Assembly (NCBI GenBank): GCA_008632985.1
Contig: QPGO01000085.1
Span: 248,001-312,000 of the forward strand
Direction of reading: 5' to 3'
Length of the DNA: 64,000 bases
Source of the DNA: Psammoneis japonica
Lineage: Eukaryota
Shown here piece after piece: positions 10,505 through 49,915 of the stretch. Under the pieces are notes generated by a model. It ran no database searches. It was not told the DNA's origin and saw only the letters and a list, made by a program, of their open reading frames with translations. How positions within the stretch are numbered: the first letter of the stretch is position 1; every line of letters starts with the position of its first letter. The position numbers were made by a program, and so were the translations under genes.

Positions 10505-11225
10505 AGGAATGACTACGGAAAACAGGGAGAATCAAGCCTCAGTGACAGCAACGTTCATTCGTACTCATTCTGTAACAACATCTCTAGAGATTGAATGAAG
10601 ATCTGGTAGCTCTACCTTAGATACCACCCTGATACCCCGTCTTCAATGGAAAATCTGCGTCGATTTCTAAATCTGCACCTCTGTTGAACGGGGATCTGAA
10701 TCTACACCCAGGAAATGACGCGGATCTCGCCTTGTTGAAAAGTCTGTTGCGGTTGTTGTCTTGCCATGCAGACTGTGATGACAGGAGGGCATGCTGGTAC
10801 ATCGTCTCGAAACGGCGCTTGCTTGTGTGTCGATTTTTTTTTTTAGCTTTGCACAAATTGCAACAGCGCCCCAGAGAGCATGGCTCAGCCCCAGCACATC
10901 TGTGTGCGATCGATGACCCGTCCTTTTCATGTCATTGCACAACTACAGACCTCCCATGTGGGGAGTTGTGTCCTTTCAAAGAAGCTGTGTTTGGTTTGCA
11001 TGTGTTACAAAAGCTGGAAGAGCAGGGGCAAGACAGGGTTCAAAACTGAAAAGTTGGATCCATCAGCAAAAATGAAAGTTGCCAATCAACAAAAGCTCTT
11101 GAGCATCATCAGGTGTGAGATGAGGAACAAGGAGGAGAGTTGAGGGCTCTCATCCAGGAGAGAAAGCCAGCAGTTGAAACAAGCCCTGCTGCACCTGGCT
11201 GGACAAGAGCTGTCCCAGCAATTGG

Positions 11226-11430
11226 TCTGAGACAGGCACTTCACTGCAGATCATGCTGGGCTGAATGCAGAAGCTGCTAAAGTCAGAGCTTGCTCATTTT
11301 TTAATGTGTTGCTTTGGCTGCCTTGAGCAAGTGATCTGAGTCAGGCACTTTACTGCAGATCACACTGGACTGACTGCAAAAGCTGCAAAAGTTAAAGCTT
11401 GCTTGTTTTTCAACTGTGTTGCTTCAGTTG
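11226..11430. repeat. Degenerate ~110-bp tandem duplication
   Basis: ctgagacaggcacttcactgcagatcatgctgg... versus ctgagtcaggcactttactgcagatcacactgg... Confidence 0.8.
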
Positions 11431-14400
11431 CATTGAGCTGCAGCCCAATCATTGTTGAGGCAGAGGTTCTGTCTGAGTTTCCTCCACATGGACTTGGCAT
11501 CCTGACAATCAACTCAAGGTCTTTTGCAAGGCAGCTGATCTTGTGGTCTCACAGCCATGTGGCAAAAAAGCAACAAACTTTCAGGTTGCTTTTTGCAAAA
11601 CACAAGATGCTTTGTTGGTTTGACCGTCATGAAAGCAGCTGATGAAAAAAATGTCACGTGCACTGGGCTGATCAAATCTGGGGCCATTCAACTCAAAAGC
11701 ACTGCACCCACAGTGCCCTCTCCAGGCAATCATGAAACTCTTTTTTAGCTTGGTCTCAAGAAGTGGTCACAGTTGATGGCAGCTTTGCTTGTGCTTCTGC
11801 TGCTGTCAAGCAGTGCCACCGCCATTGGTTGTTGTTTTTGGCACAGATTGCTTGGCTTGCTCAAAGCAAGCACTGCCACTGTGCACACAGCATTGTGGTG
11901 TTTTGGCATGAGTGCATGGAATCAACTTCAACTTGTGCACAACTGAAAATCTCAATGAACTGTCTGGAAAATTGCTGACCTCAAATGTTTCTAAAATTTT
12001 TTTGGCTCAGCCAAGACATCTGCTGGGGAATTTGTGATCCCATCAACTGTTTCTGTGCAGCAATGTCATCACAAGAATGCATTGGTGTAATTTGGAGCAC
12101 ATTTCTCAGCTGCCCTTTTGTTCATGGACTTGCTTGAGCAACAGGAAACAGAGTGAGTTCCAAATGGCAAGCTTTTTTGAGAGCAAAAGCAAAGAGAGCC
12201 AAGTTGGCATTTTTGCGCCTGTGCAGATGCTGCAAAGTTTGACAGCGTGTGACATCAAAGACAAGCACACCAGCTGTTGGAGCACCCAGATTGCTTGAAT
12301 GCAGAGAACCTGGATGTGTTGAAGAGAGAATGTTGAAAATCCTGAAATGGCAGAATTGGCAACTCTTTGTGCCCAGAATTTCATCATCACCAGCCTCACT
12401 CACCCCACAGTTTGTCTCGCTCTTTAGAGGAGTGCAAGTCATCTGGTTCACACAAGCTGCACTGTGGCATCACTGGGTGCCTGATGCATTGTGAGCTTGA
12501 AATTTGTGTCAACAACTTCTAGGCAAACCACAGCTGCCAAAGCAACCAAGGCAAGTGTGACAAGTGGCACAGCCAGGAGGGAGCCTTGCAGGATTGCCAT
12601 TTGGCAACAATGACTTGCTGGTTCAACACCAGCTGGCCAGCAGAAGCTGCTGTGTGAGAAAAGTGGTGCAGCCAGTGACAGCCATCTTGTCTCTTCTCAA
12701 CTCATCATTTTGTGCTTCTGCTGCAATGCAGTGCACTCTCTTGCATGGTTTTTGAGCAGGGCTGTCACATGTGCAGCCTGGCTGCCTTTTGGTGCAGAGA
12801 AGCACACTGTGGGAGGAGGCCTTGCTTTTTGCTTGCGCTGACTCAAGCTGAAGCTCACAAACCCAGTGGCTCTGCTTTGTCACCACATGCTCTTGGTGTG
12901 CACACTGACAGGAGAAGAACCAAAGCTTCCCCCCTTTAAAAAAAGCTTCTTTTTGTTGCTTTTTTAATTTGTGTGATGGCATGATGACTGCACATTTTTT
13001 CAAATGCAGGCACCGGGCCCACAGAGAGCTGACCTTTCTGATGACCTCCTCAGCTCTTGACTTGTGTCACAGAGACTGCCATGTTTGCCAATCATTGTGT
13101 GGCTGCACCCAGCTGAACAAGGCCAGCGACCTGGCTCTTCGAGTGGCAGCAGGTTGCGTGCCATTTCAGGAGCATCAGAGCATGGCAACATTGCAAAGCT
13201 CATCCCCCAAAATCTGAGCCACAAGTGGGAGAGCTCATCAGGAAAAGTGAAAGACACAGTCACAAGGTTTGTCATCATTGCCAAGTGATGACAGTCAAGA
13301 GGAAAACCCCTGTCAGGTGCACTTCAAGGAAGAAATCAAAAAAGTCCAAACAAAGAACCTGGTTGACTTCTCCTCTTGGACAAAGTTGTGCCTGATGAAC
13401 TTGACTGCATCTCCAATTTCCAAGACATTTCTGAGCAGGCCACAGACACAATGCCAGCTGAGAAGGAGGAAAGCTCCACATTTGAGAGGTCAGTTGACAG
13501 CTCAGGCACTGCCTTCTGGCTGCACACACTCTGAAAAATTTGCACAGGACAAACACTCAAGACCATTCCTTTGATGTGGACAAGCAAGACAACAAGCTGT
13601 GGGCTTTGTGGCAAGAAATTGTGCATCCTTCTGCCACATGCTCAACCACATTGCCTGCCAAGATCTGAGCCACACAGCAGCTCCAAGGTGAGCAAGTGTG
13701 TTCTCAATGTTGGTGCATGTGCCAAGGAAAAGAAGAAGAGGAGGGCTTTGGGAAGCAGAGGGCACAGTGGTCATGCTGGCAACAACAACAACAATCATGT
13801 GCGGCCAAGAATCAAGAAGATGGTGCACACCAATTGCAGTGACAAACTCATTGTCAAAATGCTTGGCTCCATGGATCTCCAGTGCAATGACAAGACAAAG
13901 ATTTGCTGCCAAGCTCAGTCCAGCAGCACAGGCTGCTCCGCCCCCAGAGTGAAGTGCAAAGTCCAATGAAGCCTTCATTCAAGTGTGCCAAATGAGCCAA
14001 ATGATGAGTGGCAGAGCCAATGCAGAGCCTGCGGTGGCTGGAGAGCAGTGGTCTTCAAGTTCATTTGAGGCAACAAAGATGGGGGGCTGGCAGACCAGCC
14101 ATCACCACCAAAGCTTTCTTGGAGACACTGAAGAGTTTTGCAAATGCTGTGGCAAAAACAAAGTCACAAAGCCTTTGCCATCTCTTGTCAAGACGCACAC
14201 CAGTTGAAAATGAAGCAGCAGCTGGCCACTGGTCCTGTTGATGACAACTGCCAGACCACCTTTTGTGCCCCACTGCAAAGAGACTCTGCTGACAGTGTTC
14301 AGCACAATCTTGGGGGTGCCACAAATGAGGGAGAAGCAGAGGGGTCCAGTTGGAGTCAAGTTTGGCATGGCAAAGGCAGACATGATGGAAGGGGGAGACA

Positions 14401-14849
14401 AAAAACTCTTTGTGACAGTTGCTGGTGGTGGCCCAAAATGGGGCAATGGGGCAAGAGCAGGGGCAGTGCTTGCTGGCAGCAATGGCAGTTGTTGTGTCCA
14501 GGATCTGTGCCAGACATTGTGGCTTGTTGCACAGTGCCCACAGGAAATGAGCACATTTGCGTGACTGCTGCCATTTGGCAGCAAAGGGTGGTGCACTGCA
14601 GCTGCTGCACAATGCCAAATGCCAGATTGTGTTGCATCAAGTTGTGTCACACACTCTGTTGTGTGTTTTTAAACTGGGATGTGGCTTTTCCTCACTGCCA
14701 GCAAGACAATCATCTGCCTCTGCTGCCTCTTGTGCATGGCAAGAATTGTTGGTGCTGGTCATTGCAAGTCATCTTCCTCCTCCTCCTTCAGAGAGGCAGG
14801 AGCCAAAGGAAAATGCACAGCCTGGAACATGGAAAATGGCAACAAAACA

Positions 14850-15810
14850 AACAAGCCATTGCAGGGGTGACACTGTCAAGAGCCTCAAGGTGACACTTGA
14901 GCCATTGGGTGCTTCCATGTTGCTTTGAGCACACCTTGCAGTGGCCAAACACCAGCTCAGTCAGATTTGGGTCATGGCTGTGTGGGGCAGTGCAGATGAT
15001 GGTGCCCGCCCCATTGGCTTCAATTGCGTCAACAACGGTGCAGCCAGAGTGGTGAGTTGATGCAATGTCAAGCACCACAATGGACTTTGGCTCACTCTTG
15101 CTGTGGTTGCCAAGGAACGGAGCAAGCTTCTCTTCCACCCATGACTCAAACCGTTCCTGACACACAGCTCCAATGGGGGGACTTTTCTCTTCATCTGTGT
15201 TGAGCTGCCCCGCTCAATGACATCACATGCTTCCTTTGCAAAGTTGTTGGTCTCACAAGGAGCAGCAAGCAACAAATTCTGAGTGCATTTGTCTGCTTCA
15301 AAGGATGTCAACCAAGAAACAAGATTTTGCCTCTTTTTGACCATCAACAATGACTCCTTGTGTGCTTCACTTCAATCCTTCCAGTTGGATTCATCCAAGA
15401 ATGTCAGCACACCCAGCTTGTGAGCTGCAGTTTGCAAAGCATTGAGACACCTCTGTCTTCCTTGTCCATTTTGATTGCCTTGTCAGGCATGACTTGGAGT
15501 GAGCACACCACATGCTTTCCAAGTTTCTCTCACACCTGACTTGGACTTCCCTTCTTGTCAGCTGCCTTCTCACTCATTCTTGGCATCAGCTCATCCAAAC
15601 ACAACCCAGGTTCCTCATCTTTAACATTTTTCAAGAGTTTGGTGTGTCATGTCATCCACAAACATGGCATTGATTTTGTCCAGTGTGATGTCTTGTTGTC
15701 CAATCATCAGCCTTTCAGCTGGAGTCTCACAATGCAGAAGAAGATGATGGCTGAAGCACCCCTGACTTTTGGTGTCCCAAGAAAGATGGAGCTTGCACTT
15801 GCTCAGCACT
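14850..15810 (-). pseudogene. Decayed IS630/Tc1-mariner (DDE_3) transposase
   Basis: RFESWVEEKLAPFLGNHSKSEPKSIVVLDIASTHH...IICTAPHSHDPNLTELVFGHCK corresponds to ...VLDNASxH...YxxPYSPDLNPIE..F; upstream PGLCLDEL resembles the PxLYLDEL HTH. Confidence 0.85.
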
Positions 15811-17258
15811 GATGCAGGTTGGAGTGCTTCATTTGTGCACTGGCTTCAACTCAAGCAATGTCTGGACACTCAATCTAATCAGAACAAATGAGATGGCAGC
15901 CAGTTGAAAACTGCGCCTGTTGCAATGACACACTGCTTGCCCAGTCTTCACAGCGTGGGGGCGGGGTTGCTGATTTTTTCCAAGTGCACAGTGGTTTCAC
16001 ATGACACACAAAAGGTGAGTGTCAGACTGCAGGTGTTGCAGGTGAAAAGTGCACAATGGCACAAACAAATCATTTGAACAGGCTTCAGGAATGACAGTGG
16101 CCAACTTCTTGTGAGTCAGTTTTCACCATTTCTTGTTCTTGATGTGCACCCCCACATTGCTTTTTTGTGCTGCAGATTGATGCAAGTGCAGCCACAAAAT
16201 GCCCCTGCACATCTCTGAGGTTTGCTTGGCCCTTGAGAAATGATGCGCCAAATTGCCAAAGAGGCAGCAAGAGTGATGTGATGTGTCATGCTGTGAACGA
16301 AAAAAAAAACAATTTTTTGCACTCCTTGTCTGCGCGCGCACTTGTGTTTTCTGTTTTTCACAGAAGAACAATGCACCGTGCACACTGCACAGTGGCCACC
16401 CACTGACACAAAGCAATGTGAAAGGGGACAAGCATGGTTGAGCAGGAGTGGTGCCTGGTGGTGTGCTCCAGCTCTGGGTGGGACATCCTTGCAGCCACCG
16501 CTGAGCTGTGGTGACATTGACAGTTTTTTGTCCCATGACTTTGGCAGAATTTTGTGCTGTTTGTTTGTGGTGCAATCAACGGGTGATCCACTCAACAGCT
16601 TTTGACACTTTTTTCTTTAGCGCCTTTGTGAAATGTCTTGAGGGTGGTGCAGGGCACGAGAATTTCCAAAAACCTCGACTGTGAATGACAGGTGCAAAGT
16701 GCATTGCAAACTTGGCTGGTCGTTTGTTTGAGTGCCAAAGAGACATGCTGTGTGTGCTGCATTGGCCAGAGAATGAGCTGCAGAGCTTGTGTGCAGAACT
16801 CGGTGTGCCCACGTCACATGGAGTCTGACCTTGGGCAGGAGCACACACATGGCATGCCTTTGTTTTCTTGGCAGCACTTTTTTGTGTGCTGAAAGGAGAG
16901 ACAAAGAAGATGCCTCTCCCAGAGCCAAGTCTCTCTAAGTTGGGAATCATGTGTGGGGCTCTGAGGAAATCAATGTCATCGAAAATCGAGCACAAATTGG
17001 TGTGACATGCACTGTCCCAGAACACAATTGTTGTCTCCGAACCTCTTCGCTCAGAGTGTTGCTCCCTGTTTGCGCCCCCGCCCATCGGCCGTGCCTGCGC
17101 CTGGCTGGCTGCGTGCACCCCTGCGTCAGTGGCACCATGGGATGTGGTTGTGTGTGATGTGTGATGATGTCATCACAGGCATTGAGAAGAGAATGTTCGC
17201 ACCAAGGCAAGTGCACATGCATGCATGAGCAATCTCCTGCATCCCACAGCACCCCTGA

Positions 17259-18587
17259 GGCACGTTCCCACCCTGACAATTTCGGCCGCAAAACAAACAC
17301 AATTTGGCCAAATTTGCGCATTTTCGGGCGTCAGGCTGGGAACGAATTCGATCGGCAAAAAAGATCAAAATCTCATGTCGAGCTCGGTGAGGACACCACT
17401 GTGCAACACTGTTCACACTGCCACTCTCTAGCAGCAGTGGCTCCAGCAGAGCTGCCAGCTAGAGAGACACCACAACATTGTCAGGGACAATCGTTGTCCA
17501 TTTTGCGATTGCTCTGTGGCAACCCAAGACCAATGACAACACCAGTGAAGGTCAGAAGAAATGCGCCAACATTCAATCCTCCATCAATGGCAAGAGTTGC
17601 ACGAGAGAGCAGAAAAAAGCACGAAACATTGGCATGCAGCAAGACTGCAGCATGCAAAACTGTTAAATGAAATTTCCACAGAATGTGAGGTGCCAAAAGA
17701 CACTGTTCTTAAAACTCTTGCGGTTCACCAATGGCCTGAATCCATTTCAAAGAGCAAGAGAAGGGCTGCAGACAATGGAGCAAGGCACTGTGAGGCACAA
17801 TGCCGACAATGTTGTGCAAAACATTGACCCCCCCACCAGCATCATTGTCCCAACATGCGACAAGATTGATGAAATGAGTTCACACAGCCTTCTTCACAGT
17901 CACATTCTATCACAACGGAGCACAAGCCTTGCTGTTGTTGTCGACGTGACCAAAATTCTTGTGTTCTTGACTCTTGACAGTCCATCAAGTGACAACCTCA
18001 AGCATGCACCAAAGAACCACCTCAATGCAACATCAGATCACATGTTGCCATGAAGATTCGGCCTCAAGTCTGCAGACGTGTGGTTTGTGAAGAATCCCAA
18101 CGCAAAATCTGAACAAGAGAAACAAAGACATCAAAAATGCCATCAGTCGACACGGTCGTCATCAGCCACAACAACAATGAAAAATCAAAATTCTGACAAC
18201 TTGATCGCATCAAGCGCAGTGTTGTTAACCTGTCTCCATGTTGTTGCCTTCGTAGACAGGACGGTCGTTCGTGTGTGAACGGGTCCGTTCATGGCAGCAG
18301 CCATCATGGTTGTTGTTGTGCGATCGGAGCGGAGAAAGAAAAATGGAGCTTGTGACGTGGCACGTTCGAGCTCCCAAAACGCCGAATTTACCGTGAAAAT
18401 TGTGTTTGCGGGAGAGAATTTACGACTGCCGACACCTGTCGTCGTAATTTGCTGACGATTGCGGCTGTAAATTGAAGGATGGAAAACAGACGTGCGATTT
18501 TTCTTGTGCGAGACTTTCTGCAGGAATTTTGTGTAGAACGAAATTGTGTTTGTTTTACGGCCGAAATTGTCGGGGTGGGAACGTGCC
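17259..18587. mobile_element. Non-autonomous PIF/Harbinger-like element with ~47-bp TIRs and mutated TAA TSD
   Basis: TIR GGCACGTTCCCACCC[T/C]GACAATTTCGGCCG[C/T]AAAACAAACACAATTT at 17259-17305, inverted at 18541-18587; flanks TGA and CAA; homologous empty site reads TAA (20538-20540, minus strand). Confidence 0.85.
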
Positions 18588-19599
18588 CAAATCTCGAGCC
18601 GCCTCGAAGGGACCCCACCAATTGAGCACTTTTGGTGCTCTGCAGCGCCGCGAAAAAAGCACGCGTCCCAGCAACCTCACCATGATGCTTTCAGAATGTT
18701 CATCCCCTCCCACTTCCGACGAAGAAGCGACCGACGGCACTGATGTTGTTGACCCCACTGCAACAGGTGATGTTGTTGAAATTGCCATCGCAAGCCTGTT
18801 GCTTTCGAAATTATGCCTCATTTGCTGACACTCTGTTTTTTCAGCTCCACCACCTGCCAAAGCTTCTGGCATGAATGACAATGCCGCTTCTGCCTTTCCC
18901 GCATCTGCCACGCCCGAAACGTTTCCTAACCCGACTGGCACAAGAGGCAATGATGTCGCTTTGTCTCTCATTGGCCCCAAACTGACGAAATTGTTTGGCA
19001 CCAACTAACATCATTTTCACGTTGCTGCACAGTGCCTGCCACTCATTCTGTCACCAACACCAACGCAATGACCAATGTTCCAGCGGATGACACCCCCTGT
19101 GCCTTTCCTGCTGTGCCCGGTCCACATCAGGCAATGACACATGTGTCATGCATTGCTGTTGTGCACCAAAAATGCCAACAGCACTGTTGCACTGTCTCAC
19201 GCCATTTTTGCTCATGCTCCACAGTGCATGCCACTGCTTCTGTTGCGAACACCATTGACGCATCGGCTTCCCTTGGCGACTTTGCCACGCCCAATGTTGC
19301 GGCCCAGGTCGGTGTTCCACCCATTGTGTCTGAATCACAGCAGACTTGTGATCCGGAAGACTTGCACTTCCTGTCTCCCGATCCAGTTCCTGCCGCCCAA
19401 TCCCCGACCCGCAACTGGGCGTCTCCTGTGACAGAGTCCCCTGAGAGGCTCGCTCCCGCCACATTGCGCGACATCATTCATGGCTCTGATGGGCGAAAGC
19501 GTCATGCTTCTAAGCTTCGTGATCATCGCAAAACGAAAAAGACCAAGGCCAACACCAAGGTGAAACCAAAGGATGAGCCATGGTTGTGCTGCAGGGAGG

Positions 19600-19830
19600 C
19601 TCTGTGCATTGATTTCCGGCACTGGTCGGAGCCAAGCGACAGCAAGGGGACTGCGGCAAGGACAACACTGCGAGTGCAAACTCCAACAACATCTCGAACA
19701 AGCGATTTGCCACCACCTGCAGGTCGGACCAGCAGATGAGGTCTGGCAGAACATTTGCAAGAAGACTCAATTGAGCTGGACCCAACCGCGGTCTGCCAAC
19801 CATGTGGATGCTTGCCAAAGACGTCGACAG
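19600..19830 (-). pseudogene. RecQ-like SF2 helicase N-terminal fragment
   Basis: LLVRPAGGGKSLV (motif I, PTGGGKS-like) and VPLLSLGSDQ (motif Ia), preceded by PHGWQ (Q-motif-like). Confidence 0.65.
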
Positions 19831-21426
19831 ACACAGTGTCGAAAGCTTGGGAGGCACAGGTCGAAAATGGGTTGTGGCCCGCTGTGGTGCAAGCAGTGGC
19901 ATGCACTGTGGAGCATGAGTGAAAATGGCGTGAGATGGTGCAACAGCACTGTTGGCATTTTTGGCACACAACAGCAATGCATGATGCGTGTGTCATCAAC
20001 TGATGGACCGGGCGCAGCAGGAAAGGCACCGGGGGTGCCATCCGCCGCAGCGTTGGTCATTGCGTTGGTGTTGGTGATGGAACAAGTGGCAGGCGCTGCG
20101 CAGCCACAGAAAAAAGGTGTCAGTTGGTGCCAAACAATTTCGTCAGTGTCAGGCCAATGAGAGACAAAGCAACACAATCACCTGTTGCGCCAGTCGGGTC
20201 AGGAAAGGTTCCGGGTGTGGCAGCTGCGGGAAAGGCAGAAGTGGCGTTGTCATTCATGCCAGAAGCTTCAGCAGGCGGTGGAGCTGAAAAAACAGAGTGT
20301 CAGCAAATGAGGTGTCATTTCGGAAGCAACAGGGCTGCGACGGCAATTTCAACAACGTCACCTGTTGCAGTGGGGCAAATGTCATCAGCACCGTCGGTCA
20401 CTTCTTCATCAGAAGTGGGAGGGGACGAACATTCTGAAAGCATCATGGTGAGGTTGTTGTGCCGCGTGCTTTTTTCGCGGTAAAGAGATGGCTGAAAACT
20501 GGTCAATTGGTGGGGTCCCTTCGAGGCGGCTCGAGATTTAGGGGAGAGCATGGTTCGGGATTTTTCCTGCAACTATCAGCATTTGTGTACAAATGTAATT
20601 GTCTTTACATTTATACAAATATAAAAATGCCATGACGTGAGCATACATCACCATGACATCACCAACCATACTCTCCACTGACGCAGGGGTGGCCTGCGCG
20701 CAGCTGCCAGTCTTGGGCGCCAGAAGCACATGCGGCAATGTTTCATAAGAATCCGGTACTGATTCGTGAAAGCCACGACACGACTGAAGGCAGAAATCGC
20801 CGCAAAACGCAAGTCACACGTCACAAAGTGTCGCTAATGTGTCCTAGAGACATAGATTACGATTAGAATGTGTCTTCTCTACATGAGTTGCGTAGAACGA
20901 AAACTCCTTTCTTCGGAGGAACTTGTGAAGTCAGAAACTGTGCGCACTGACGGTCGAAGTGCATCAGGGGTGTCAAAAGTAGAATTCTACACAGTCAGTA
21001 TGGAGTGAGGCACGAAAACCCCAGCTCAGTGAACCTAACACGTCATTTATTTAGGGCAGATGTCTCGTCACACGCAAGAAGGCTGCCGACGATGCCAAAA
21101 TCGCCCATAAGTGACAAACAGCTGCACCAGCTGACGCAAAATTATGAGCCAATCAAAACACGCCGAACTGAATTTGCGCTGAATGGATGGCCGTCAGCAT
21201 TTTACGATTAACGTGTAGAATCCTACCACGTACGAGACCTATTGCCTATTTATCCGAGTGTTTCTGACACCAGCGAACACTGCCGGAAGTTTCTCCTCTG
21301 CCGTCGTACATTGCTGCGGGAAAATAGTAGGTCGGCCACCTCAGCCACTGAAAGCAGACTGGAAGACACCATTCTGCTCACAAAAAGAGTTGACACATCA
21401 TCCATCACAAATTTCTCCGCAAAACA

Positions 21427-23649
21427 ATGACCATATCAGCTCCCCAAGTCCTTGAGCGTATGATTGGCCATGAGGCTCTTCAGCCTCGTATTTCTACTCA
21501 CCTCCCTCAGTCAGTTTCCTGCAAGGAAGATTGCGTAACTCGTCGAAGTGCTGGCATCGCACTCAACGAAATTGGGACCAAGTTGTTTCTCGCGGGACAC
21601 CACGACGATGCAGTTGGTATGTATAACACTGCCTTTCAAGCCCTTAGAGTAAGTGATGCGTCCTACGAATACGACAAGCAGGTTCCTTTTCTTGCTGCTA
21701 GACACGTCGCTTGGGGCAAACAGAAACTTGACGGAGTTGCAACGCAGTCGTATGTTTCCTTCCAAGACCACCCCATGGACACTTACCACGAGGGAGAATG
21801 TGACGTCGGACCAAGACCCTTCAGAAGCCCAAACGCTATTGATTCTTCCGACATCGACTCGACAGACGTCCGATGCCTTGAAGCTATGGTCATGTTCAAC
21901 TGGGCCCTCGTCCACCATGCCAAGTCCGAACTTACCGAAGCCGCAGAAACCTACTCTATCGCGGTGTATTTGATCTCTACGATTCCCATCTCGACGGAAA
22001 ACCCCGATTCAAGCACTAATGAGATTGCAAAGATTGGTATGCATGTCCATAACAATCTCGGACAGATCAAGTATGTTGAGGGTCTCGAGGAAGAAGCGCT
22101 CGGCCACTTTCTTGCTGCCCTTGAATGGTCCAAGTTCTCTACCACCAGTGACAAGGAGTTCGTTTTGGAAACGGCTCAGGTCATGTCGAACTACTGTCGC
22201 GCGCTGTGGACTACAATGAACACAAGCGACGACGCCTACCGTTATTTTGTCAAAGTGTTGAGCTTGCGCTCATCTGTTTTAGAATGGGATCACGTTGATG
22301 TGGCATCTGCTCACTACAACCTGGGGATTATGGAATACTTACGGGGAAACAATGGGAATGCGCAGTATCATTTGGAGCAATTCATCAAGATCAGCAACGA
22401 AAGAAGAAAGAAGGGTCTCGAGCAACTAGATACCATTCCCGCACTTGTGCACATTCTGCTAATCAAAAATGACAGCCAAGGTGACGAGCAATCCTCGGAG
22501 TTGGTCGTGTGTCTTCGTCTTTTCCTTGACAAACGAGAGGAATACGGCATCATTCATTCCGAAGTTGCTACGATTCTGAACTACGTTGGCGCCCTTCTAT
22601 TTCAGCGTAAGGATCTCGACGACGCAATTGAGTTTTACTACGAGGAGCTCCGTGTTGAACAGCACCTACTTGGATCCAACATGAGAAACGATGCGACCCT
22701 CAGTCTGGCTGTGACGATGAACAACATTGGCCGCATTCTACAGGAGCAAGGCAAATACAAGAAGGCTAAGCACTTTTACATTCGAGCTCTTGAAACGGAA
22801 TGTCGAACGAGTGAATGCGGTGCGGCGCTTGTCGCTTCACTTAATGTAGGAAAGACTCCTTCGATTCCCTCGGAAGATGAAAATGGTTCCTTGTCGACTG
22901 CCAACTTGTTTGCAACTATCTGGTACAATCTTGGTCTAATCCACGACCTTACAAATGCACCTAAGGAGGCGATCAAGGCTTTCAAAATGTCACTTGAACT
23001 GCGACGTGCGCTGTTAGGATCAAATCATGCGGACGTTGCCTGTCTGTGGTACAATATTGGCACTCTTCAAATGGAAAACTCGATGCTTTCAGAAGCGTCC
23101 TCGTCTTTGCGGGAGTCTCTTCGCATCCGACGACTCGGTGTTTGCTCCGAACAAAACGACTCGCACATTCTATCGACTCTCAAAAAGCTGGCATCCCTGC
23201 ACCAGAATCGCGGAAGCATTAAAGAAGCTATTGAAGCGTACTCCCAGGTGTTGGAGGTTCAACGTACGAGCAGCGCTACCAGTATGGAGGTTGGTATTAC
23301 CTTGCGTTCCATTGCGGAACTCCAACACGCAGCTGGGGATTTAGATGGGGCTTTGGATACTGCCGCTCAGAGTCTGCAAACCCTCATGTGGTGCCCGTCC
23401 ATGCAAAACGTGGGTTCTCCCGAATACTTGACTTGCGCCGAACACCTTGGATCCATTCTACTTTCCATCGGCAGTATGCACCACGAGAACTGCGATCCAA
23501 ACAAAGCTACTGCGGCGTTCCGAGAGGCAGGTCGAATAATTGGTTCGGCCTGCGATTCTGTTGTTTCAGGTATCCCCCCAACAACTCTTGCGCCTCTTTT
23601 GGATGTCTGCAAAATGTTGGCAAGCTCAAACTGCGCACCAGAAGCATAA
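21427..23649 (+). CDS. TPR-repeat protein (kinesin light chain-like repeats)
   Basis: 740-aa intronless ORF with HVDVASAHYNLG, AVTMNNIGRIL, HADVACLWYNIG repeats. Confidence 0.9.
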   Translation: MTISAPQVLERMIGHEALQPRISTHLPQSVSCKEDCVTRRSAGIALNEIGTKLFLAGHHDDAVGMYNTAFQALRVSDASYEYDKQVPFLAARHVAWGKQKLDGVATQSYVSFQDHPMDTYHEGECDVGPRPFRSPNAIDSSDIDSTDVRCLEAMVMFNWALVHHAKSELTEAAETYSIAVYLISTIPISTENPDSSTNEIAKIGMHVHNNLGQIKYVEGLEEEALGHFLAALEWSKFSTTSDKEFVLETAQVMSNYCRALWTTMNTSDDAYRYFVKVLSLRSSVLEWDHVDVASAHYNLGIMEYLRGNNGNAQYHLEQFIKISNERRKKGLEQLDTIPALVHILLIKNDSQGDEQSSELVVCLRLFLDKREEYGIIHSEVATILNYVGALLFQRKDLDDAIEFYYEELRVEQHLLGSNMRNDATLSLAVTMNNIGRILQEQGKYKKAKHFYIRALETECRTSECGAALVASLNVGKTPSIPSEDENGSLSTANLFATIWYNLGLIHDLTNAPKEAIKAFKMSLELRRALLGSNHADVACLWYNIGTLQMENSMLSEASSSLRESLRIRRLGVCSEQNDSHILSTLKKLASLHQNRGSIKEAIEAYSQVLEVQRTSSATSMEVGITLRSIAELQHAAGDLDGALDTAAQSLQTLMWCPSMQNVGSPEYLTCAEHLGSILLSIGSMHHENCDPNKATAAFREAGRIIGSACDSVVSGIPPTTLAPLLDVCKMLASSNCAPEA

Positions 23650-24518
23650 CTCTCGAAACGGAGAGTTAAGCTGCTACTGTACATTTTCATCCTAGCAAGA
23701 TCACTACAATATAGAACACTTACAGGATACATCACAAATATTTGACTACTCCCACTTCGAAGTACATACTTATAGTTGCAGCAATCATCTTGTAGGTTGA
23801 ACCCGTTTGTTATCTACTACTCTCTCCTCTCTACAGTAGAGAGTAAGTTGAGCTCTTCAGTGACTAAACTACTAGTAGCTACGTACTTCTACTCTAGTAG
23901 TAGCTAGCATAATACAGGAGGCTACGAAAAGAGCGAGCATAGCTTAGAGTAAGTGGGGAAGCGCATAAATAAGCGAGCTAGCTAGAGCTCTCTCTAGCTA
24001 GCTAGAGCTACTCTCTACTCGAGGAGAGCAACCAGCAGCCAATGCACGACAAGTACAAATCTACACAATCCCGGTTTTCTCGAGACCAGAAGTCGCTAGA
24101 AGTCGAAGGTTTCGCTTGGGAACTTCTAAGAACTTCAGAAAGTCACATTTCCGTCAACTACTTAGGGTCTAGTCGTGAAACAAGGCAGAAAATGACACCG
24201 ACTTACTTAAATGAAAATGACTTAAACGCGTTTGTGACAGGCGATTCCACAAAAATGGCGGGGAATCTCAGTAGACGTACGTAGAACTGTACTAAAAAAG
24301 CGACTAAAACGGAAGGGTGGACGTCATTGCGTTGATGTTATGTGGCCAATCTGTTGAGATGGGAGACACGACGTTTTCAAGACGTTCACCTCTTGGCACC
24401 GAAAACTGCACGGCAAAACTTCTGACGATCGCATCATGCAGCCACACCCTTACAACAGGTACCGGAATTTCCTCCAAAGCAACATCGACAGCAGCAATCA
24501 TTTCCGACTACTTTAGCA

Positions 24519-26804
24519 ATGAGCTCTTCTCTTCCATGCGTTGACGCCTACGTTTGGCGACTCAACGACATTGGGACCAAGTTGTATTCGCGTGGGAAGA
24601 AAGATGAGGCAATGGCCATGTACAATATGGCCATGGACACGCTGATTCGAAACAAAGAATACCTACAAATGTGTGATGATGCTACAATGATTCAAAAGAT
24701 AAAGTGGGGAGAAGATAAGCTAAAAGAGGCGAAGTCATCAAGAAAGCGGTTTTCGCATCCGGAGTATCCTCACGACGTTTATCAGGACTGCGAATGCCAG
24801 CCGGCTCCCCGTCCGCTTCGTGATCCAATCGAAGCCGTGTCGGTGCTCGAAAACGGCAGTGCTGTTGACTCAAACTATCTTAAGGCAGTGATCTTGTACA
24901 ACAGAGCTCTGGTTCACCATACAGAGAACCGCGTGAAAGACGCCGAGGATACATATGCTCTGGCTCTGAGTGTGCTGACACAATGTACCTATTCGTATGA
25001 TGCAATCACTCGCCAGGTCCTTGATCCCTCTTGGGCCAGCCAGTTTGCGTACTTGGCCATGATGATCCAGAACAATGTTGGTCACATTAATCACGTGCAT
25101 GGGGAGCTCGACGAAGCCCTTGTCCGGTTCATGGCTGCGGCTGATTGGTCCCAACGTTTTCAACGTTGCGAGGACAATACGGTCCGCCTCCAAGTGGCAA
25201 ACGTCTTGTCCAACTTTTCTCGCACACAGTGGGTAAACTGGTACCTTAGCGAATCACCAACGACGGATTGCGTAATGCACGATGCATTGGAGCTAGTATT
25301 GCGTATGCGTCTCTTGGTGCTGGACGAAGATGACCTTGATGTCGCAAGCGCTCACTACAACTACGGAGTGTTTCTGTATGAACAAGGAAACAGCAAATGC
25401 GCCAAACATCATTTGGAAGAATGTCTCAAGATCTACAAGATACACCGAGAAAAGAGACGAAAATCGAGCCAAATGATCAACTTGATACCGGTCCTGTCCT
25501 ATATCCTTCTCATTGCGTGCGAGGGCGAGCCGGGCGGTGATCTGCAATCCCCAGAGCTGTCGAAATGGCTCCGCGTCTTGCTGGACACCCGAAGGCAAGT
25601 TGGGATTGTCCACTCGACCGTGGCAAGACTCCTGAATGCCATTGGTGGAGCTCTCTTCTATCGAGAAGATCTGGACTACGCCTTTGAGTTTTATCGTGAA
25701 GAACTACGAATCGAGGAAGCCTTGTTTGCTCCTGGCGGAGAGCTCAGAAACAAGACCACAAAGCTGAGCGTGGCAATCACTATGAATAACCTTGGGCGTG
25801 TCCTTCAAGAACAACATAGACATGTCGAAGCAATCGTTTTCTTTCAACGAGCCGTCTACAGCGAGCTCTGCCATAAAAAGTTGGAACCACATATTATGAC
25901 GTGGATAAGTTCTGGGGACAATGTACCTCGTCCACCATTTTCACTCAAAGACTTTCCCGGTCAACTCCTCGAGACTGCTTACCTACTATCCACTATTTGG
26001 TACAATTTGGGACTGGTTTACGATGTAAGCAAAAAGCCCATTCAAGCGATTCGATGCTTCCAAATGTGTCTCGAGTTTCGGTCGGGCATTGTGGGACCGG
26101 ACCAACCAGACATTGCCTGTCTCTGGTACAACATTGGGACCCTTCAAGTGGAAAACGGCATGCTTCACCAAGCCGTGGAGTCGCTCGGTGAATTCCTTCG
26201 CATTCGACGACTGGGCGTCAGTTGCGAGCAAGACGACGCCAACCTTGTGTCCGTCCTTCTCAAGCTGGCTCGTCTCCACAAGAAGCGTGGCAACCTCAAA
26301 CAGGCGCTCGAAGCCTACACTCAAGTCCTTGAAGTACAACGCTTTAACATGGCCGGCGACAGCATGCACGTGGGCATGACGCTGTGTTCGATTGCCGAAC
26401 TCCAACACACGCTGGGCGATATCGACGCGGCGCTCGATACGGCCGATCAGAGTTTACGTGCCTATCTCTTGTCGCCCACCATGCGTCAAGTGACATCACC
26501 GAATTATGTAACGTGTGCCCAAAATGCGGGCACCATTTTGCTAGCCCTGGGTAGTTTGTACCATGAGCACTGCGATGCCGGGTTGGCCCATGAGGCCTAC
26601 CAAGAAGCGACCCGGGTTTTGACCATGGCGCGTGATGCCGCAAGGCGAAGCGGCACGGAAGAAACGCCTCCGCCGCCGTCTACTACGGAATCAAACAGTA
26701 CTGCTGTCATTGACAGCGATTCTCCTCGAGGTATCATCACACTTTTGCCGCTCTTGGAGGTTAGTGAAATGCTAGGACGCGCACACTGTGCTCCTCAAGC
26801 TTAA
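24519..26804 (+). CDS. TPR-repeat protein, tandem paralogue of 21427-23649
   Basis: 761-aa ORF collinear with its neighbour (LNDIGTKL, DVASAHYN, ACLWYNIGTLQ, LRIRRLGV, C-terminal CAPQA versus CAPEA). Confidence 0.9.
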   Translation: MSSSLPCVDAYVWRLNDIGTKLYSRGKKDEAMAMYNMAMDTLIRNKEYLQMCDDATMIQKIKWGEDKLKEAKSSRKRFSHPEYPHDVYQDCECQPAPRPLRDPIEAVSVLENGSAVDSNYLKAVILYNRALVHHTENRVKDAEDTYALALSVLTQCTYSYDAITRQVLDPSWASQFAYLAMMIQNNVGHINHVHGELDEALVRFMAAADWSQRFQRCEDNTVRLQVANVLSNFSRTQWVNWYLSESPTTDCVMHDALELVLRMRLLVLDEDDLDVASAHYNYGVFLYEQGNSKCAKHHLEECLKIYKIHREKRRKSSQMINLIPVLSYILLIACEGEPGGDLQSPELSKWLRVLLDTRRQVGIVHSTVARLLNAIGGALFYREDLDYAFEFYREELRIEEALFAPGGELRNKTTKLSVAITMNNLGRVLQEQHRHVEAIVFFQRAVYSELCHKKLEPHIMTWISSGDNVPRPPFSLKDFPGQLLETAYLLSTIWYNLGLVYDVSKKPIQAIRCFQMCLEFRSGIVGPDQPDIACLWYNIGTLQVENGMLHQAVESLGEFLRIRRLGVSCEQDDANLVSVLLKLARLHKKRGNLKQALEAYTQVLEVQRFNMAGDSMHVGMTLCSIAELQHTLGDIDAALDTADQSLRAYLLSPTMRQVTSPNYVTCAQNAGTILLALGSLYHEHCDAGLAHEAYQEATRVLTMARDAARRSGTEETPPPPSTTESNSTAVIDSDSPRGIITLLPLLEVSEMLGRAHCAPQA

Positions 26805-27771
26805 GACAAGGAACAGAATGCTACTGAATGAAATATCTGGCAGAATCGACTGCCAACTGCTTCCATAGTCGTCATAGTTTACATTTTTTTATAGAATGCA
26901 TACCGTATATCATTGATTGAGATGCATCAAATTAGTCTCGACGCCATGCGCACATCCTGGCAAGAAGAAGAAGAAGCTCTGCCCTGTCGCATTGAACACA
27001 ATGCTGTGTTGGAGCAAGGCATCGTAACAGACTTGAAACGAACAGTATCCTCGCTTCGACTCGTTTCGAATTATTGCAGTCCATGAATTGCTTTTGATTG
27101 AAATACACAATGCGGCTTTTGCAATCGTTGGTCCAAAGAATTGCTACACTCTAGAGAGAAAACTACCCCGCGGACGACCACTCTCTATATCATGTTATGC
27201 TCTTTATCTACTACAATGAATGTTGCTGCATAGGTCCTTGGTTGGAGCACTTTATCTACATTTTGGCACTGTGTTCTTTATGCGAATGAATCTTTCTTAT
27301 GGATTGTTGGTTGAATACTCTAGAGCGGCACATTGGGGCTAGCGAAGCAAGAGTTTTATACCAGCATAGAAAAGCCGACCGACCGACCGACCACAATTTC
27401 TGCTATGCTATCTCAATCAATTTTAAATTAGGGTCTAGAACGAAAGCATTGTGGATTGGATCATTGGTATAGTACCTAATCGAGCACGTTTGTTTCTGTT
27501 TGCTTACGAGAATAATTCTCACTGCACAGCTCTACTAGTTTGTTGCTACCGCAGACCAACAAGTCGTCAGGAGACGAACTCGAATGCTTTGTATTTATTA
27601 TTTCTGATTTAGCCATGGATGTTAACTCTGCAATCTCTGCTGTGCACTTTTTTCAATGGGACTTTCGTGAATCGTGTTGTACAGCCCCGCCTCTAGAGTT
27701 GTTTCTTGCTATATGCTTTCTCCTATATGCTTTCTCCTGGTTCTCTGCACACACATAACTCATCACAGTGT

Positions 27772-32946: not shown

Positions 32947-33449
32947 ACTTTTTGTTTTCACGCGTACAACTCAACCATTGAACACGCAACAGAGCACCGA
33001 TTTCAGCTATCCACACATAGATTAGAACACCCTAACTGACACTCTAGCTGCCTCATCAGTTCGACATTCTGCATTACCTTTTCCGTACGTTTATGCCGGG
33101 GGGTACAAAAATACAGTGGGGGTTGCGAGTTATTACGACCACACAAACAGGTGCGTTTCATTGGACAGCGTGACTTGCGGCGATGCGTTAATTGACATGT
33201 TGTCTATAACTAGCATCGTTTAAAAATTTGTGTGCATGTTCTTTTGTTATTCTTGCTTGATGCAGGCTTTTATGGACTTTTCAAATTGGAAACCGAATGG
33301 AAAAAAGTCTGGAAGAAAGGAGAACTCAAAGCTGCAAGCACATTTCAAAACATGGAATCAGAGTTGACAAGAGCAAATGAGGCTGGGCTCAGTTGCTGGT
33401 GTCAAGCCAACAAACACAATCTTTATTTGCCTGAAGATGCCCAGAAATC

Positions 33450-36240
33450 CAAGTGAACAATTTGTTTGCAATGCATTGTCTTTCCACATCTGGTTTCACA
33501 AGACTGGGTGCTGCAACAACTGTGCTGGCTCACCATGTGTTTTTGGGATCCAAGAAATCATGCAGACGTTCACACAAGTCGCAAGTTGAAAGATGCATTG
33601 TTCCACAACACAGAACCCAAAAACAACAGTTTCTGCAACAATCTCAACTGCATGCCAGGTTCAAAAAGGGATGTGAAAATGCCTTGGCCAGGGCAACTGA
33701 TGCATCCGCAGAACCTTCCGGCAACTGAAATTTGAAGTCGAGTGCATCAAAGCTGGTGCAGCCTGATCTTGAGTGGAGCTCCTTCAGAAGAAGCATGCCC
33801 TTGGTGCTGTGGTCATTTGGAATCATGACAACTCATTTTTTACCTTCAACAGTGCACAGAAAGTTGAAGAGGTCAGCGTCAAAGTGTGCAGAGTGTGAGT
33901 GCCCTTTGTGGCAAGCCAGATCCTCGACCAACCAAAGAAACCATGATCTTTTTTCTGCTGCTTTTCCTTGAAGGGGGCATGATTGCTGCAACCAAGTTCA
34001 CTGTTTGTCATGATTTGTTGGATGCTCTTGTTCACTTCTGTGCCAACTTCCTGGAACAGGTCCTTTTCCATGTCCACATCTTCAATGCGGAGCACTTGCA
34101 GTCTGTGCTGTGTCCAGCCTCAGTGCTGCTGGCAATGGATTGCTTTAGATTTGTTGCTGCTGCAGGGGTCTCATTTGAAACAAGCCCCTTGTGAGCCAGA
34201 AAAACCACAATCAATCTCAAGATCTCTGCCTTCTCCAAGGCCTTTCCCAAGGCCTTCTCTGGGGCTTTCAAAGTGCAAGAGGCCAAAGCACTGAAAATCA
34301 TGGACCTGTGTGAGCCACAGCCACTTCACATTTGTGAACATTTTGTTGGAAGAAAACCAGCCACTGACAAGTTTTTTGCCAGCAAACGGTCCCTGCTCTG
34401 CATTGCAGGGCCTCTTTGGATGTTGAAAAATGTTTTTTTCCCTTGTGGCTTGCGTGTGCTGTGCTTGCCACAAGAACAAGAAAATTCCCTTTGTTGTTTG
34501 CAGAGTGGCCCATCCATGCTAAATCTTCCATTTTCCTGTCAATGGTCTCAAGAGCTCCAACCATTTCCTAAAGAAGTGGAGCTGCACAGTGTGCACTTGC
34601 TTGAGAATGCAGTTTTTGCTGCTTCTGATGACTCCAAGGACAAATGCAACCTGGTCGTTCATGACAGAGCAAGACAGGCCAACAAAGATTCCATGAAATG
34701 ACTGGCTTTCTCAATGGAAGAGTGGGCCAATGTGGCTTCAAACCTGTTGACGTAACATCCTCAGCTTTTTGAATCAGAGGTGGCAGTGTTCTGTTCAAAC
34801 ATGGCAAGAAAGACTGTCTCAATTCTTGGGAGACACCGGACAAACACACCAAGGTGATCATGAAGTTTCAGGAGAACAAGGTGCTCCCTCCATTGTTGGG
34901 CACGGCCACATGAGAGCACCACAATCATTGCACACCAGAAGATGAACTTGTGACACATGCCTTTTGATGGCCAATCTGGAGATTTGAACAAAGGTGATGT
35001 TGCTGCTTTTGTCAAGGAGAAATGCCATTTTGCTGGTGGGTCTGCTCAAATTGGCACTTGTGCTTGAACGCAGCACCCAGGAATTGAAGAAAGAGCTGAA
35101 AGACTTGCTTGGTGGCCTCAAGAAAGAGCTGTGGAAAGCCTTGACAAACAACAGTGTTCCAAGATGAGCTGATGACACCACAAGAAATTCATTGATGCAA
35201 TGGCTTGGAGATGACCGCGGTGTTGCAGTCGATGCTGTCAGTGAGTTTGTTGCCATGGCTGCACATGCAAAGAAGGGGCATGAGCTTGCCAATGCAATGA
35301 GCATGGTTGCAAATGCCACAGGGGACTTGGCTCTAAAAAGATGGGTGTTTGAACTCAAACAACTTGAGGAGATCAAAAAAGGATTTCAATGGTGGTGTGG
35401 TTGTGTCTCTGCACTGCAACAATGATGATGGTGTTTTCTGCCAACCAACTCATCAAGTTTGCTGCAATGATGATGAGAAGATCCTTGACGGTGAGGTCAA
35501 TGAGAGCAACTTGACAACAATGTTTTGCTGGAAGTGGAATCAAGATTGTTTTGATGTTGCCATGTGCAGCAACAGGACCCCAGTCACTGTCCAATTCACC
35601 ACATCTTCAAAGCACTCCATCAAATTTCATCGCACGAGGGAGTCAAGGAAAGCACATGAGGTGGAGACAGGGCTCTCAAGGCAGACACAAATTTTTGTGT
35701 TGGCATCAGCAATGAGGGCAACAAGATCTGTTGGGATCCAAAGTCAGGACATGGAGCGTCACACTGTGGTGACAAGGGCTGTGAGACATGTCTTTGCTCT
35801 TCATTTCCGTTGGTCGTGGGTGACATGCAGATGATCCTTGTGCGGCAAGCCCAAAAGGAGAACAACTTTCACCCCAACAAAGACTCTGGAGAAATGGTCA
35901 CAATGCACCACAAAAAGCGAAAGCACCAAGATGCATGATCTCATGTTCAAAATTTCAAAGTGGCTGTGACGCCTCTTTTGCGCCAAGGCAAGCTGCACAG
36001 TCGCGCGGAAAAACCAGCCACATTGTCATGGCAATGATGAACACCAGGACACTGGAAAGACACAAACAGGCATGTGCAATGGATTTGACCCCAAATGTTG
36101 ATCAGATTCTCCGCATGATCTGAAGAAACATCCGTTGATTTCGATTTGATTGGACTTGTGTGTTTTTTCAAGTGTTTTGACTCAACGACTTGTTGAACAC
36201 GGGCCACATGCAATGCAGCGCCAATGATGTCAAGGACTTT
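33450..36240. other. Hypermutated domain 2
   Basis: Near absence of TpA and strong CpG depletion; TA returns at ~36250 (ttagattagaattccctaac). Confidence 0.9.
34270..35700 (+). pseudogene. Decayed Crinkler (CRN)-type NTPase + restriction-endonuclease-like gene
   Basis: LHICEHF (~LYIRE), CIAGP.. broken P-loop at ~34400, VKEKCHFAGGSAQ at 35011-35049 (~KYYFAGGSAR), KWNQDCFDVAM...TVQFTTSSKHSIKF (~KWNQGxxD...QxT...HSLK). Confidence 0.7.
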
Positions 36241-36300
36241 CAGACCACACTTAGATTAGAATTCCCTAACTGTCACTCTAACTGCCTCAACAGTTCAAAC
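36022..36300 (+). pseudogene. Duplicated 3' end and 3' UTR of the GT61 gene (copy of ~32815-33065)
   Basis: AMMNTRTLERHKQACAMDLTPNVDQILRMI* versus AMMNTRTLEGRKQARAMDLTPDIDQILRMIRR; UTR similarity continues to ctgcctca. Confidence 0.92.
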
Positions 36301-41329: not shown

Positions 41330-42262
41330 TCAACTGTGCCTTGAGCGTGCAACGTTCTCATCCAGAAAGGCAGCAAGTGCTTCGAGGCCTTGCACAGAGT
41401 TGGTGGCAATCGGGTGGTAGTTTTGAACGCTCTCGCCACTTTCCATGGATTGACACTCAGAGTGGCTAGGGTTGATTCGAATCAAAGTATCGCCTCGAGA
41501 GGAGTCCGCTAGCCTCTCTGCCTTGTATCGGATTGACGGCACGACTGTGCCTGCTCCAATTTCCAAGACGATCCACGTTTGGTTTAGCGTTAAAAACTTG
41601 TCGAGTCGCTTCTGTTGTTCGGAAAAGCGAGAGTACAGCAGTGTATCGTCCCCAAATATCATCACGTTTGGACGTAAACAGCGCTTGCTGCATTTGGGAC
41701 ACATTGGTACCCAACTCGTGTCTGCCTGCAGTCGATCAAGATGATCTAGTGTCTTGTACAACTCTGTCGAGCAAGGCCCAGCGCACTGGAGAAAGGCGAG
41801 AGAGCCATGAATCTCCTGAATGTTTACATCGTCATCATTGGCAAGGTCGCCCCGTAAATGCAGTCCATCACAGTTGGATGTAATTACAAATGTTTTGGAC
41901 GGCCCAAAGTGATCCATGATTCGGTCAAGTGCTTTGTAGTCGTCGCCTCGTTCAACAAGAGCTCTCAAGATGCGCCAACGCCAGTACTGCCAAGCCTCTT
42001 TCATGGTTTCGTTTCGAAACATTTCAGGAACAGAAAACGAAAACCAATCGTCCGCGGGTGGAAGACCAGCGCTACGACGTGCTCTGTTGTAATTTTCGAG
42101 AAACGACTGGAATTCCGCCGACATGCTTCCATCGGACATGCGAAAGACTGGCACTCCTGAGTTTACTGACATTCCTGCACCAGTCAACACGAGTAGACCG
42201 TGGCCATTTTGGTAGGCAGACAAGAGTACCTCGCAGGCTTCTTTCAAGGCGGGATCTGTCAT
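41330..42262 (-). CDS. Sirtuin (SIR2-family NAD-dependent deacylase)
   Basis: LTGAGMSVNSGVPVFR, ITSNCDGLH, EIHGSL..LQC...C, P.CPKC...LRPNVMIFGD, LEIGAG, IRINP. Confidence 0.95.
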   Translation of the reverse strand: MTDPALKEACEVLLSAYQNGHGLLVLTGAGMSVNSGVPVFRMSDGSMSAEFQSFLENYNRARRSAGLPPADDWFSFSVPEMFRNETMKEAWQYWRWRILRALVERGDDYKALDRIMDHFGPSKTFVITSNCDGLHLRGDLANDDDVNIQEIHGSLAFLQCAGPCSTELYKTLDHLDRLQADTSWVPMCPKCSKRCLRPNVMIFGDDTLLYSRFSEQQKRLDKFLTLNQTWIVLEIGAGTVVPSIRYKAERLADSSRGDTLIRINPSHSECQSMESGESVQNYHPIATNSVQGLEALAAFLDENVARSRHS

Positions 42263-42477
42263 GGTCGGAGTCGGTGTCGACCGCGAACGCGACTCACTTT
42301 GTGGGGGTTTGGTGAGCGCTGGAAAGTGGAAAGACGACGACTCGACGTCTTTTGCACACGCACGGCGTACGGCAAAATTGCACTGACAACCCCCCCCCCC
42401 CCCAATGCACTGACAGGCAGACTTTTTTCAGCTGGCAGCTGGCCGCGGCTGGAGACATCCTCCCCCAGTGTGTTGGG

Positions 42478-44639: not shown

Positions 44640-44880
44640 CAATGTTGCTTCCTGGGTTGTTGCTGTCTGAGCTGTTGCTTGCTGAGCTTCCTTCTCTGCA
44701 GCACAGTTTGCAAGCCCTGTTGCTTCCTGAGCTGTTGCTTCTTAGTCATCACTTCCTGAGCTGTTGCTTCCTGAACTCCCTTCTTCACAACAAGGTTCAT
44801 GAGCCCTGTTCCTTCCTGAGCTGTTGCTTCCTGAGTCATTGCTTTCTGAGCTGTTTCTTCCTGAAGAGCTGTTGCTGCAG
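44640..44880. repeat. Degenerate minisatellite (ctgagctgttgcttc units)
   Basis: Recurrent ctgagctgttgcttc; minus strand reads as QEATAQE repeats. Confidence 0.8.
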
Positions 44881-49835: not shown

Positions 49836-49915
49836 GATGCGAACTTGAAACTGGAACATCGAACATCATCACTCTAGTTGGAAACACCATCGACGCATGT
49901 GACACATTTTGTTGC

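Follow-up and report, generated by a model that had tools for sequence, protein, structure and literature searches.

The closest described system comes from the rhizarian alga Bigelowiella natans, in which de novo TpA>TpG/CpA changes were reported at about 1000 times the background in two virus-derived regions and in some of the lines, together with TpA-poor clusters, transposon-type domains among the TpA-poor coding sequences, and ADAT2 as the proposed enzyme (Mettrop et al., bioRxiv 10.64898/2026.01.13.699255); the part of that text available to us mentions neither diatoms, nor stramenopiles, nor CpG. In ascomycete fungi, repeat-induced point mutation (RIP) has been described as a set of dinucleotide-specific transitions through which repeats are degraded and composition domains left behind, with homology as the trigger and C>T, mostly CpA>TpA, as the change. 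Concerning the transposons themselves, the accessible account of the PHIS group gives TWA (W being A or T) as the target of PIF/Harbinger elements and TNA between C and G (C-TNA-G) as that of NuwaII (Han et al. 2015, PMC4482050). Here, we describe a stretch of 64,000 nucleotides from the pennate diatom Psammoneis japonica (assembly GCA_008632985.1, contig QPGO01000085.1, positions 248,001 to 312,000; called the window hereafter, with position 1 as its first letter), in which a 1329-bp element with terminal inverted repeats (TIRs), inserted inside a second DNA transposon, is bordered by a target-site duplication (TSD) reading TGA on its left and CAA on its right. With a probability of roughly 0.9, the element was inserted at TAA, and the region was later subjected to a TpA hypermutation that follows chromosomal position.

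The letters of the insertion site can be read directly, with CCCC at 17252-17255, TGA at 17256-17258, the element at 17259-18587, CAA at 18588-18590, and ATCTCGAGCC at 18591-18600, in line with an earlier note on this DNA. That note also took the empty site to be preserved within the window, and the minus strand of 20528-20544 does read CCCC-TAA-ATCTCGAGCC, but this is a paralogous inverted arm of the host transposon, and it resembles the left flank no farther than CCCC because the internal inverted repeat of the host begins there; its TAA survives because the border of the TpA-depleted domain falls inside the host transposon. The empty sites proper are found in the left arms of five other host copies, with TAA in four and CAA in one, in a flank that is 84-91% identical to 17115-17256, and the right arms of the host copies show TAA in all six cases listed, with one more diverged copy being irregular. 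Both TGA and CAA, therefore, derive from TAA by changes that came after the insertion, since the true empty sites have TAA in four of the five host copies, and the same TGA/CAA pair recurs in another copy of the element, L018 (copies and loci are designated by L numbers). The direction from TA to TG/CA that the earlier note had drawn is correct, but the pair of letters alone does not provide it, given that TAA and CGA are the only one-step sources of both TGA and CAA; it is the empty sites that settle the target, because CGA lies equally close and CpG decay is real. Nor are TGA and CAA constant letters of the element ends. The pattern exceeds chance, as about 30 relatives have these ends in common; in a hand tally, discordant TSDs of the TpA type were present in 5/12 heavily mutated complete copies and in 0/13 unmutated or lightly mutated ones, the cases besides the window copy being TGA/CAA in L018, TTA/TTG in L016, and TTA/TCA in both L008 and the outer copy at L011. 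All six TSD letters of the window copy rest on the assembly, with no shown piece of one public run crossing either junction. In sum, the observation of the earlier note is confirmed as real and its conclusion as right, with two of its supports being wrong.

The mutation spectrum of the window copy is heavily concentrated at a single dinucleotide. Its 78 ancestral TpA steps became TG in 31 cases, CA in 29, and CG in two, while 12 were kept and four were unscorable, so that 62 of the 74 scorable steps changed, and CpG was lost at 7/64. At the columns fixed in the young copies, 32/83 TpA half-sites changed vs. 1/396 other T/A sites (Fisher p 4e-26), and the reverse change, CA/TG>TA, was found at 0/176 sites of this copy. 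The host transposon shows the same contrast when compared with its TA-rich copy L051 (74/189 TpA vs. 15/600 other sites changed, summed). The cleanest pair is that of L009 and L013, which differ at only 2/804 columns outside TA and CG, with 49/77 TpA lost in L009, none gained, and 5/72 CpG lost. The erosion of CpG trails the loss of TpA, as older copies have lost up to 42/57 of their CpG; over the 10 hit copies, it reaches 147/981 half-sites. Among these same 10 copies, both outcomes, TG and CA, occur at 59/78 sites, without runs along one strand (absolute z up to 1.01), and this speaks for many separate events, affecting both strands. The choice of strand in 559 hits gives relative weights of 3.3, 1.9, 1.4, and 1 where C, T, G, and A, respectively, follow the changed A on its 3' side, and 16/34 of the TpA steps surviving in the domain of the window stand in TTAA or CTAA.

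The TIRs of the window copy (47 nt, 96% complementary) conceal most of this damage when they are compared with each other. Their only mismatches are those at TIR positions 16 (TG/CG) and 31 (CA/TA), as the earlier note had seen, but its reading of the former as a CG->TG mutation of this copy fails: position 16 is TG in every one of the 23 5' ends and CG in 18/23 3' ends, so that the difference is an asymmetry of the family. The CA/TA difference is real, and eight of the nine TpA changes that appear against the young copy L004 (five in one TIR and four in the other) are parallel and, thus, cancel out between the two TIRs. All nine share one direction in TIR orientation (17259-17305 and 18541-18587), and a context bias explains part of this, with copying between TIRs as another possible source.

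Regarding the position, the insertion lies close to the right edge of a depleted block of about 10 kb, which adjoins genes of normal TA content. Hits occur in 10 copies, each with at least one depleted flank, and in none of the eight whose flanks are both normal (p 0.003 over 23 complete copies). Three copies, L015, L016, and L023, straddle a border, and in each of them the end facing normal DNA is spared; in the window itself, the right border of the domain cuts the host transposon, whose last 150 bp keep 12/14 TpA. Position predicts hits better than homology, and homology alone is not the trigger, because near-identical copies escape.

The evidence indicates the following sequence of events. 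A non-autonomous TIR element with a 3-bp TNA target entered CCCC-TAA-ATC, 140 bp inside the second DNA transposon, and duplicated TAA. Later, a TpA-specific A:T>G:C hypermutation swept the region, hitting the left TSD copy on the plus strand (TGA) and the right one on the minus strand (CAA), along with most TpA steps of the inner and host elements. The process is correlated with chromosomal position, that is, with blocks of dead transposons whose borders may cut through elements, and not with copy number; the slower loss of CpG comes afterwards. The role of all this is likely genome defence.

Several observations weigh against this account. Of the 15 copies with depleted DNA on a flank, five carry few or no hits, with L012 keeping 77/77 TpA, and these require either recent insertion or an episodic activity; age and position are partly confounded. 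Outcomes shared between copies exceed the expectation in L001/L008 (36/50 vs. 28), L001/L016 (31/41 vs. 23), and L015/L023 (34/43 vs. 24), and the young subfamily A inherited 12-15 TpA losses, so the changes are not all confined to single copies; at 5 of 14 lost sites, the window copy disagrees with subfamily A and is, therefore, not descended from its master. The context weight fits equally well a preference for the base 5' of T, which leaves A- and T-centred chemistry inseparable. Finally, the presence of candidate deaminases says little, none of them being tied to the process, because housekeeping types are among them and the second A_deamin gene described below has relatives across diatoms.

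As for the chemistry, we would give even odds to DNA adenine deamination: an enzyme of the TadA/ADAT or ADAR-like type would be recruited to chromatin that is silenced and probably methylated, and would convert A to inosine, which then reads as G, through numerous separate events affecting the two strands. We favour this chemistry because AA>AG is not raised (31/1645 vs. 65/2278 at other non-TpA sites) and because the preferred TAC context is also the motif reported for TadA-8e on RNA (PMC9126838, as far as its accessible part goes). The changes resemble those of TadA-derived editors and of ADAR/APOBEC hypermutation in being A>G after a 5' T/U, and they are unlike that editing in lacking strand-coordinated runs. 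Single-pass editors leave such runs, and strand-processive editing was rejected on account of their absence. To our knowledge, no natural enzyme has been shown to deaminate TpA in diatom DNA.

Among the other chemistries, an error-prone polymerase of the pol eta kind, misreading T at TpA in repair patches of methylated repeats, would account for the fact that TpA and CpG loss occupy the same domains. However, pol eta makes A>G at WA, i.e., at both TA and AA, and the AA>AG counts just given, together with the lack of strand-coordinated runs and a TpA loss running far ahead of CpG loss, make this an unlikely source. Somewhat less probable still is that the T of TpA carries a modification (oxidation to hydroxymethyl- or formyl-uracil, or a similar change) and mispairs with G: modified bases of the thymine type are known in other protists, and T>C is inseparable from A>G in sequence, but the genome gave no Tet_JBP match, which counts only weakly since that search had no positive control.

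A trigger by homology, as in fungal RIP, instead of position, could draw on the fact that all examined hit DNA is repeated and that hit copies are often more diverged and older. We consider it improbable, given that six copies sharing 99-100% identity across 1.3 kb have hardly been touched, that L009 and L013 are equally young and only the copy in the depleted domain was hit, that the borders cut through elements, and that the B. natans target was single-copy, according to the accessible text (bioRxiv 10.64898/2026.01.13.699255).

Much less can be said for the alternatives concerning the target and the direction. The target might have been TGA already, as the unhit copy L006 has TGA on both sides, with the right copy reaching CAA either through two unrelated changes or through conversion from the TAA-bearing inverted arm 1.9 kb away followed by TA>CA; this is very improbable, since it requires two rare changes (background 1/396) or an extra event, TGA is in none of the empty sites, and L018 carries the same TGA/CAA pair elsewhere. 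A CGA target with deamination of 5-methylcytosine on opposite strands is one step from both triplets, CpG loss in the domains is real (147/981), and the genome has 27 C5-methyltransferase matches; it is, however, already refuted by the empty sites (CGA in 0/5, and in 0/62 termini) unless the host copy of the window had a private TAA>CGA change, and at the window copy's own rates, with only 7/64 CpG lost, TAA gives TGA/CAA with 0.16 and CGA with 0.003. The opposite polarity, with the TA-rich copies having undergone a RIP-like CA/TG>TA change, or an assembly error can be dismissed, because the TA-rich copies are near-identical and the TA-poor ones differ among themselves at the same sites, the reverse change is 0/176, L009 lost 49/77 TpA and gained none relative to L013, and the pattern is restricted to domains and recurs in two families. 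Ultraviolet TA photoproducts have the wrong spectrum and GC-biased conversion lacks context specificity, and both were set aside.

Compared with B. natans, the diatom pattern shares every feature of that signature that could be tested: the changes are TpA-specific A:T>G:C, they lie on both strands, and they are confined to mobile DNA, as judged from two transposon families and one window. To the extent that the available text allows, the two systems also agree in the TpA>TpG/CpA change itself, in targeting regions of foreign or selfish DNA, in leaving TpA-poor, TG/CA-rich clusters, in requiring no second copy, in being apparently episodic, and in having an A-deaminase as the proposed candidate. 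They differ in that the present host is a stramenopile diatom and not a rhizarian, and in that the process is seen here on DNA transposon families and TSDs and is near saturation, at about 4 TA/kb. The diatom process also has borders inside elements, an order of weights TAC>TAT>TAG>TAA, and a trailing CpG loss, and the accessible part of the B. natans paper reports neither of the latter two. With RIP, as partially described, the diatom process shares the degradation of repeats by dinucleotide-specific transitions and the resulting composition domains, and it differs in being A:T>G:C, the opposite direction, and position-dependent; neither the CA/TG>TA change nor, by an indirect test, the homology trigger of RIP was found, as copies of 99-100% identity in normal flanks are unhit.

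In the literature that we searched, which was thin on subscription journals, no report of TpA hypermutation in diatoms was found, and as far as those searches reach, this is the second lineage for a hypermutation in print only from one rhizarian alga. The discordant TSD is a small, clean time-stamp, telling that the mutation acts after insertion and reaches beyond the element ends, and the series of paralogs reveals the direction of this A:T>G:C hypermutation and adds evidence on its context preference and its dependence on position. A second branch of the supergroup suggests a wider eukaryotic defence, opposite in direction to RIP. That diatoms and chlorarachniophytes share an old defence spanning the stramenopiles, alveolates, and Rhizaria, with a natural DNA adenine deaminase (of the ADAT2/TadA type, or the ADAR-like protein found throughout diatoms, which lacks dsRNA-binding domains) acting at TpA in silenced domains, is a tentative and, for now, rather doubtful extension; if true, a shared defence that erases TA steps in transposons would also consume TA/TWA integration targets. 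Since gene knock-out tools exist for diatoms (PMC9998398, accessible part), the enzyme can be sought. In such genomes, the dating or classification of transposons by TSDs or identity fails, because a copy 0.25% diverged at ordinary sites can lack two thirds of its TpA.

The deaminase genes of this genome, labelled from motifs and Pfam, comprise two A_deamin genes besides ADAT2-like (G000:C26:119851), TadA-like (C38:7368), and housekeeping types. The second A_deamin gene (G000:C79:344558-345390, L104) has a DCHAE motif, which we take to be ADAR-like, relatives in centric and pennate diatoms, and no other Pfam domain; searches of the PDB with A_deamin did not separate ADAR from ADAT1, and an atlas search with an exon of the second gene returned the family only. 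In another diatom, P. tricornutum, DNMT5 methylates transposons, according to the accessible part of PMC9998398. A cytidine-deaminase-fold domain in one frame with a 2OG-Fe(II) dioxygenase was also observed at G000:C79:88506 (L087:310-1785, minus strand).

The inner element belongs to a family for which the genome search gave 102 matches, about 30 of them long, and its TIR pattern has 52 genome matches vs. 0 for a reversed control. The alignments and the 23-copy test exclude one-ended copies and L030, which is the L011 element. The 23 complete aligned copies comprise 13 with 55-65 TA per kb and 10 with 6-22; 12 of the TA-rich ones form three subfamilies of 97-100% identity, and the thirteenth, L029, is more distant. 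The TSDs of the TA-rich copies are TAA in five, TTA in two, TCA in three, TGA in one, and irregular in two, so the rule of the earlier note that PIF/Harbinger elements duplicate TAA/TTA is not strict in this family, 4/13 unmutated or lightly mutated copies having matched TGA/TGA or TCA/TCA. The family duplicates TNA and, thus, stands between PIF/Harbinger and NuwaII: TNA is present at 50/62 termini and TGA/TCA at 11/29 termini with an intact TIR, the base 5' of the target is a pyrimidine at 53/62, and the adjacent base is C in 30/62 and T in 23/62. The scoring of TSDs inside vs. outside depleted DNA that the earlier note had proposed gives TWA at 6/33 termini with depleted flanks vs. 14/29 with normal ones, a contrast that mixes target loss and later mutation. 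As in the PHIS elements of the accessible account (PMC4482050), there is a 3-bp TSD, the TIRs start with GG, and a pyrimidine precedes the target; unlike them, the inner element showed no transposase or Myb/SANT gene, and its target is TNA with an adjacent C in only part of the termini. A Pfam scan of two open reading frames (ORFs) of L004 gave no match, none of 20 loci examined among the 23 DDE_Tnp_4 matches of the genome resembled the element within 1.5 kb, and no autonomous partner was found in 15 extended loci, for which 26 ORFs, a subset, were scanned. With neither coding capacity nor an autonomous partner found, the name Harbinger-like refers to the ends only. The longer copies contain retroelement or unassigned DNA.

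Three side observations concern copies of this family. At L011 (G000:C90:82585-85411), one copy is nested in another, the inner having lost six TpA and the outer most of them, which makes a natural time series. L012 (G000:C81:180550-181875) is untouched, with TSD TCA/TCA, and lies in a domain where hardly any TpA or CpG is left, and it is a good sentinel for ongoing activity. At element positions of about 1180-1310, a CpG-rich stretch, several subterminal TpA steps are unmutated in 7-9 of the 10 hit copies, being perhaps protein-bound or unmethylated. A protection of TpA by adjacent CpG was rejected, since the apparent effect (55/157 unchanged vs. 89/483 overall) is gone in the core (9/67 vs. 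30/354) and is, thus, positional.

Table 1. Features of the locus, given as positions in the window.
Feature	Positions	Strand	Basis or remark
TpA-depleted domain	10900..20530		4.3 TA/kb over 10701-20600 vs. 42.5 in 20701-27000
Host transposon, 17-bp terminal inverted repeats at 17116-17132 and 20675-20691	17116..20691		sequence comparison
Left TSD copy TGA, from TAA by plus-strand A>G	17256..17258	+	letters and empty sites
Inner element, non-autonomous PHIS/Harbinger-like TIR element, 1329 bp, about 30 genome relatives	17259..18587		genome search, alignment
Left TIR, 47 nt; TpA changed to CA 5/5 vs. young copy L004; TG at position 16	17259..17305	+	alignment
Right TIR, 47 nt; TpA changed 4/5 vs. 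L004; CG at position 16	18541..18587	-	alignment
Right TSD copy CAA, from TAA by T>C (minus-strand A>G)	18588..18590	+	letters and empty sites
Left internal arm, inverted repeat of about 650 bp, 86% to right arm	18588..19239	+	sequence comparison
Putative decayed RecQ-like helicase motif-I fragment, weak	19523..19890	-	best E 0.008; 8/8 matches RecQ-family; no Pfam match
Right internal arm, with paralogous unmutated CCCC-TAA site at 20528-20544	19891..20544	-	sequence comparison

The host transposon belongs to a family (L051-L057) that is presumably MULE-like or AcademH-like, with TSDs of 9-10 bp in the other copies and at least five other two-armed copies. Its 650-bp arm resembles the 5' portion of an intron-containing gene, and an Rfam scan of 16000-21500 gave no match. 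In its own 9-bp TSD (17107-17115 / 20692-20700), 7/9 letters agree, and a public run, possibly of the source sample, restores one mismatch as CpG. That run offers one contig of 4.6 kb across the left flank, which differs there at two positions, keeping a TpA at 17097 and a CpG at 17114, a weak hint that these changes are recent; within the repeats, 11 of the 40 differences listed (of 54) restore a TpA and one removes one, these being inseparable from paralogues. No public RNA run was listed. A decayed DDE_3 transposase fragment, presumably Tc1/mariner-like, lies inside the depleted domain at 14788-15371 on the minus strand. Next to the domain stand two tandem TPR genes, 3 kb apart (21394-23649 and 24426-26804), with normal TpA content, and the flanking TPR protein has named relatives from Nitzschia, Cylindrotheca, Phaeodactylum, and Seminavis. 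Farther along the window, three more TpA-depleted blocks, at 33251-36300, 42201-51300, and 51901-54600, have 12, 15, and 45 CG per kb, respectively.

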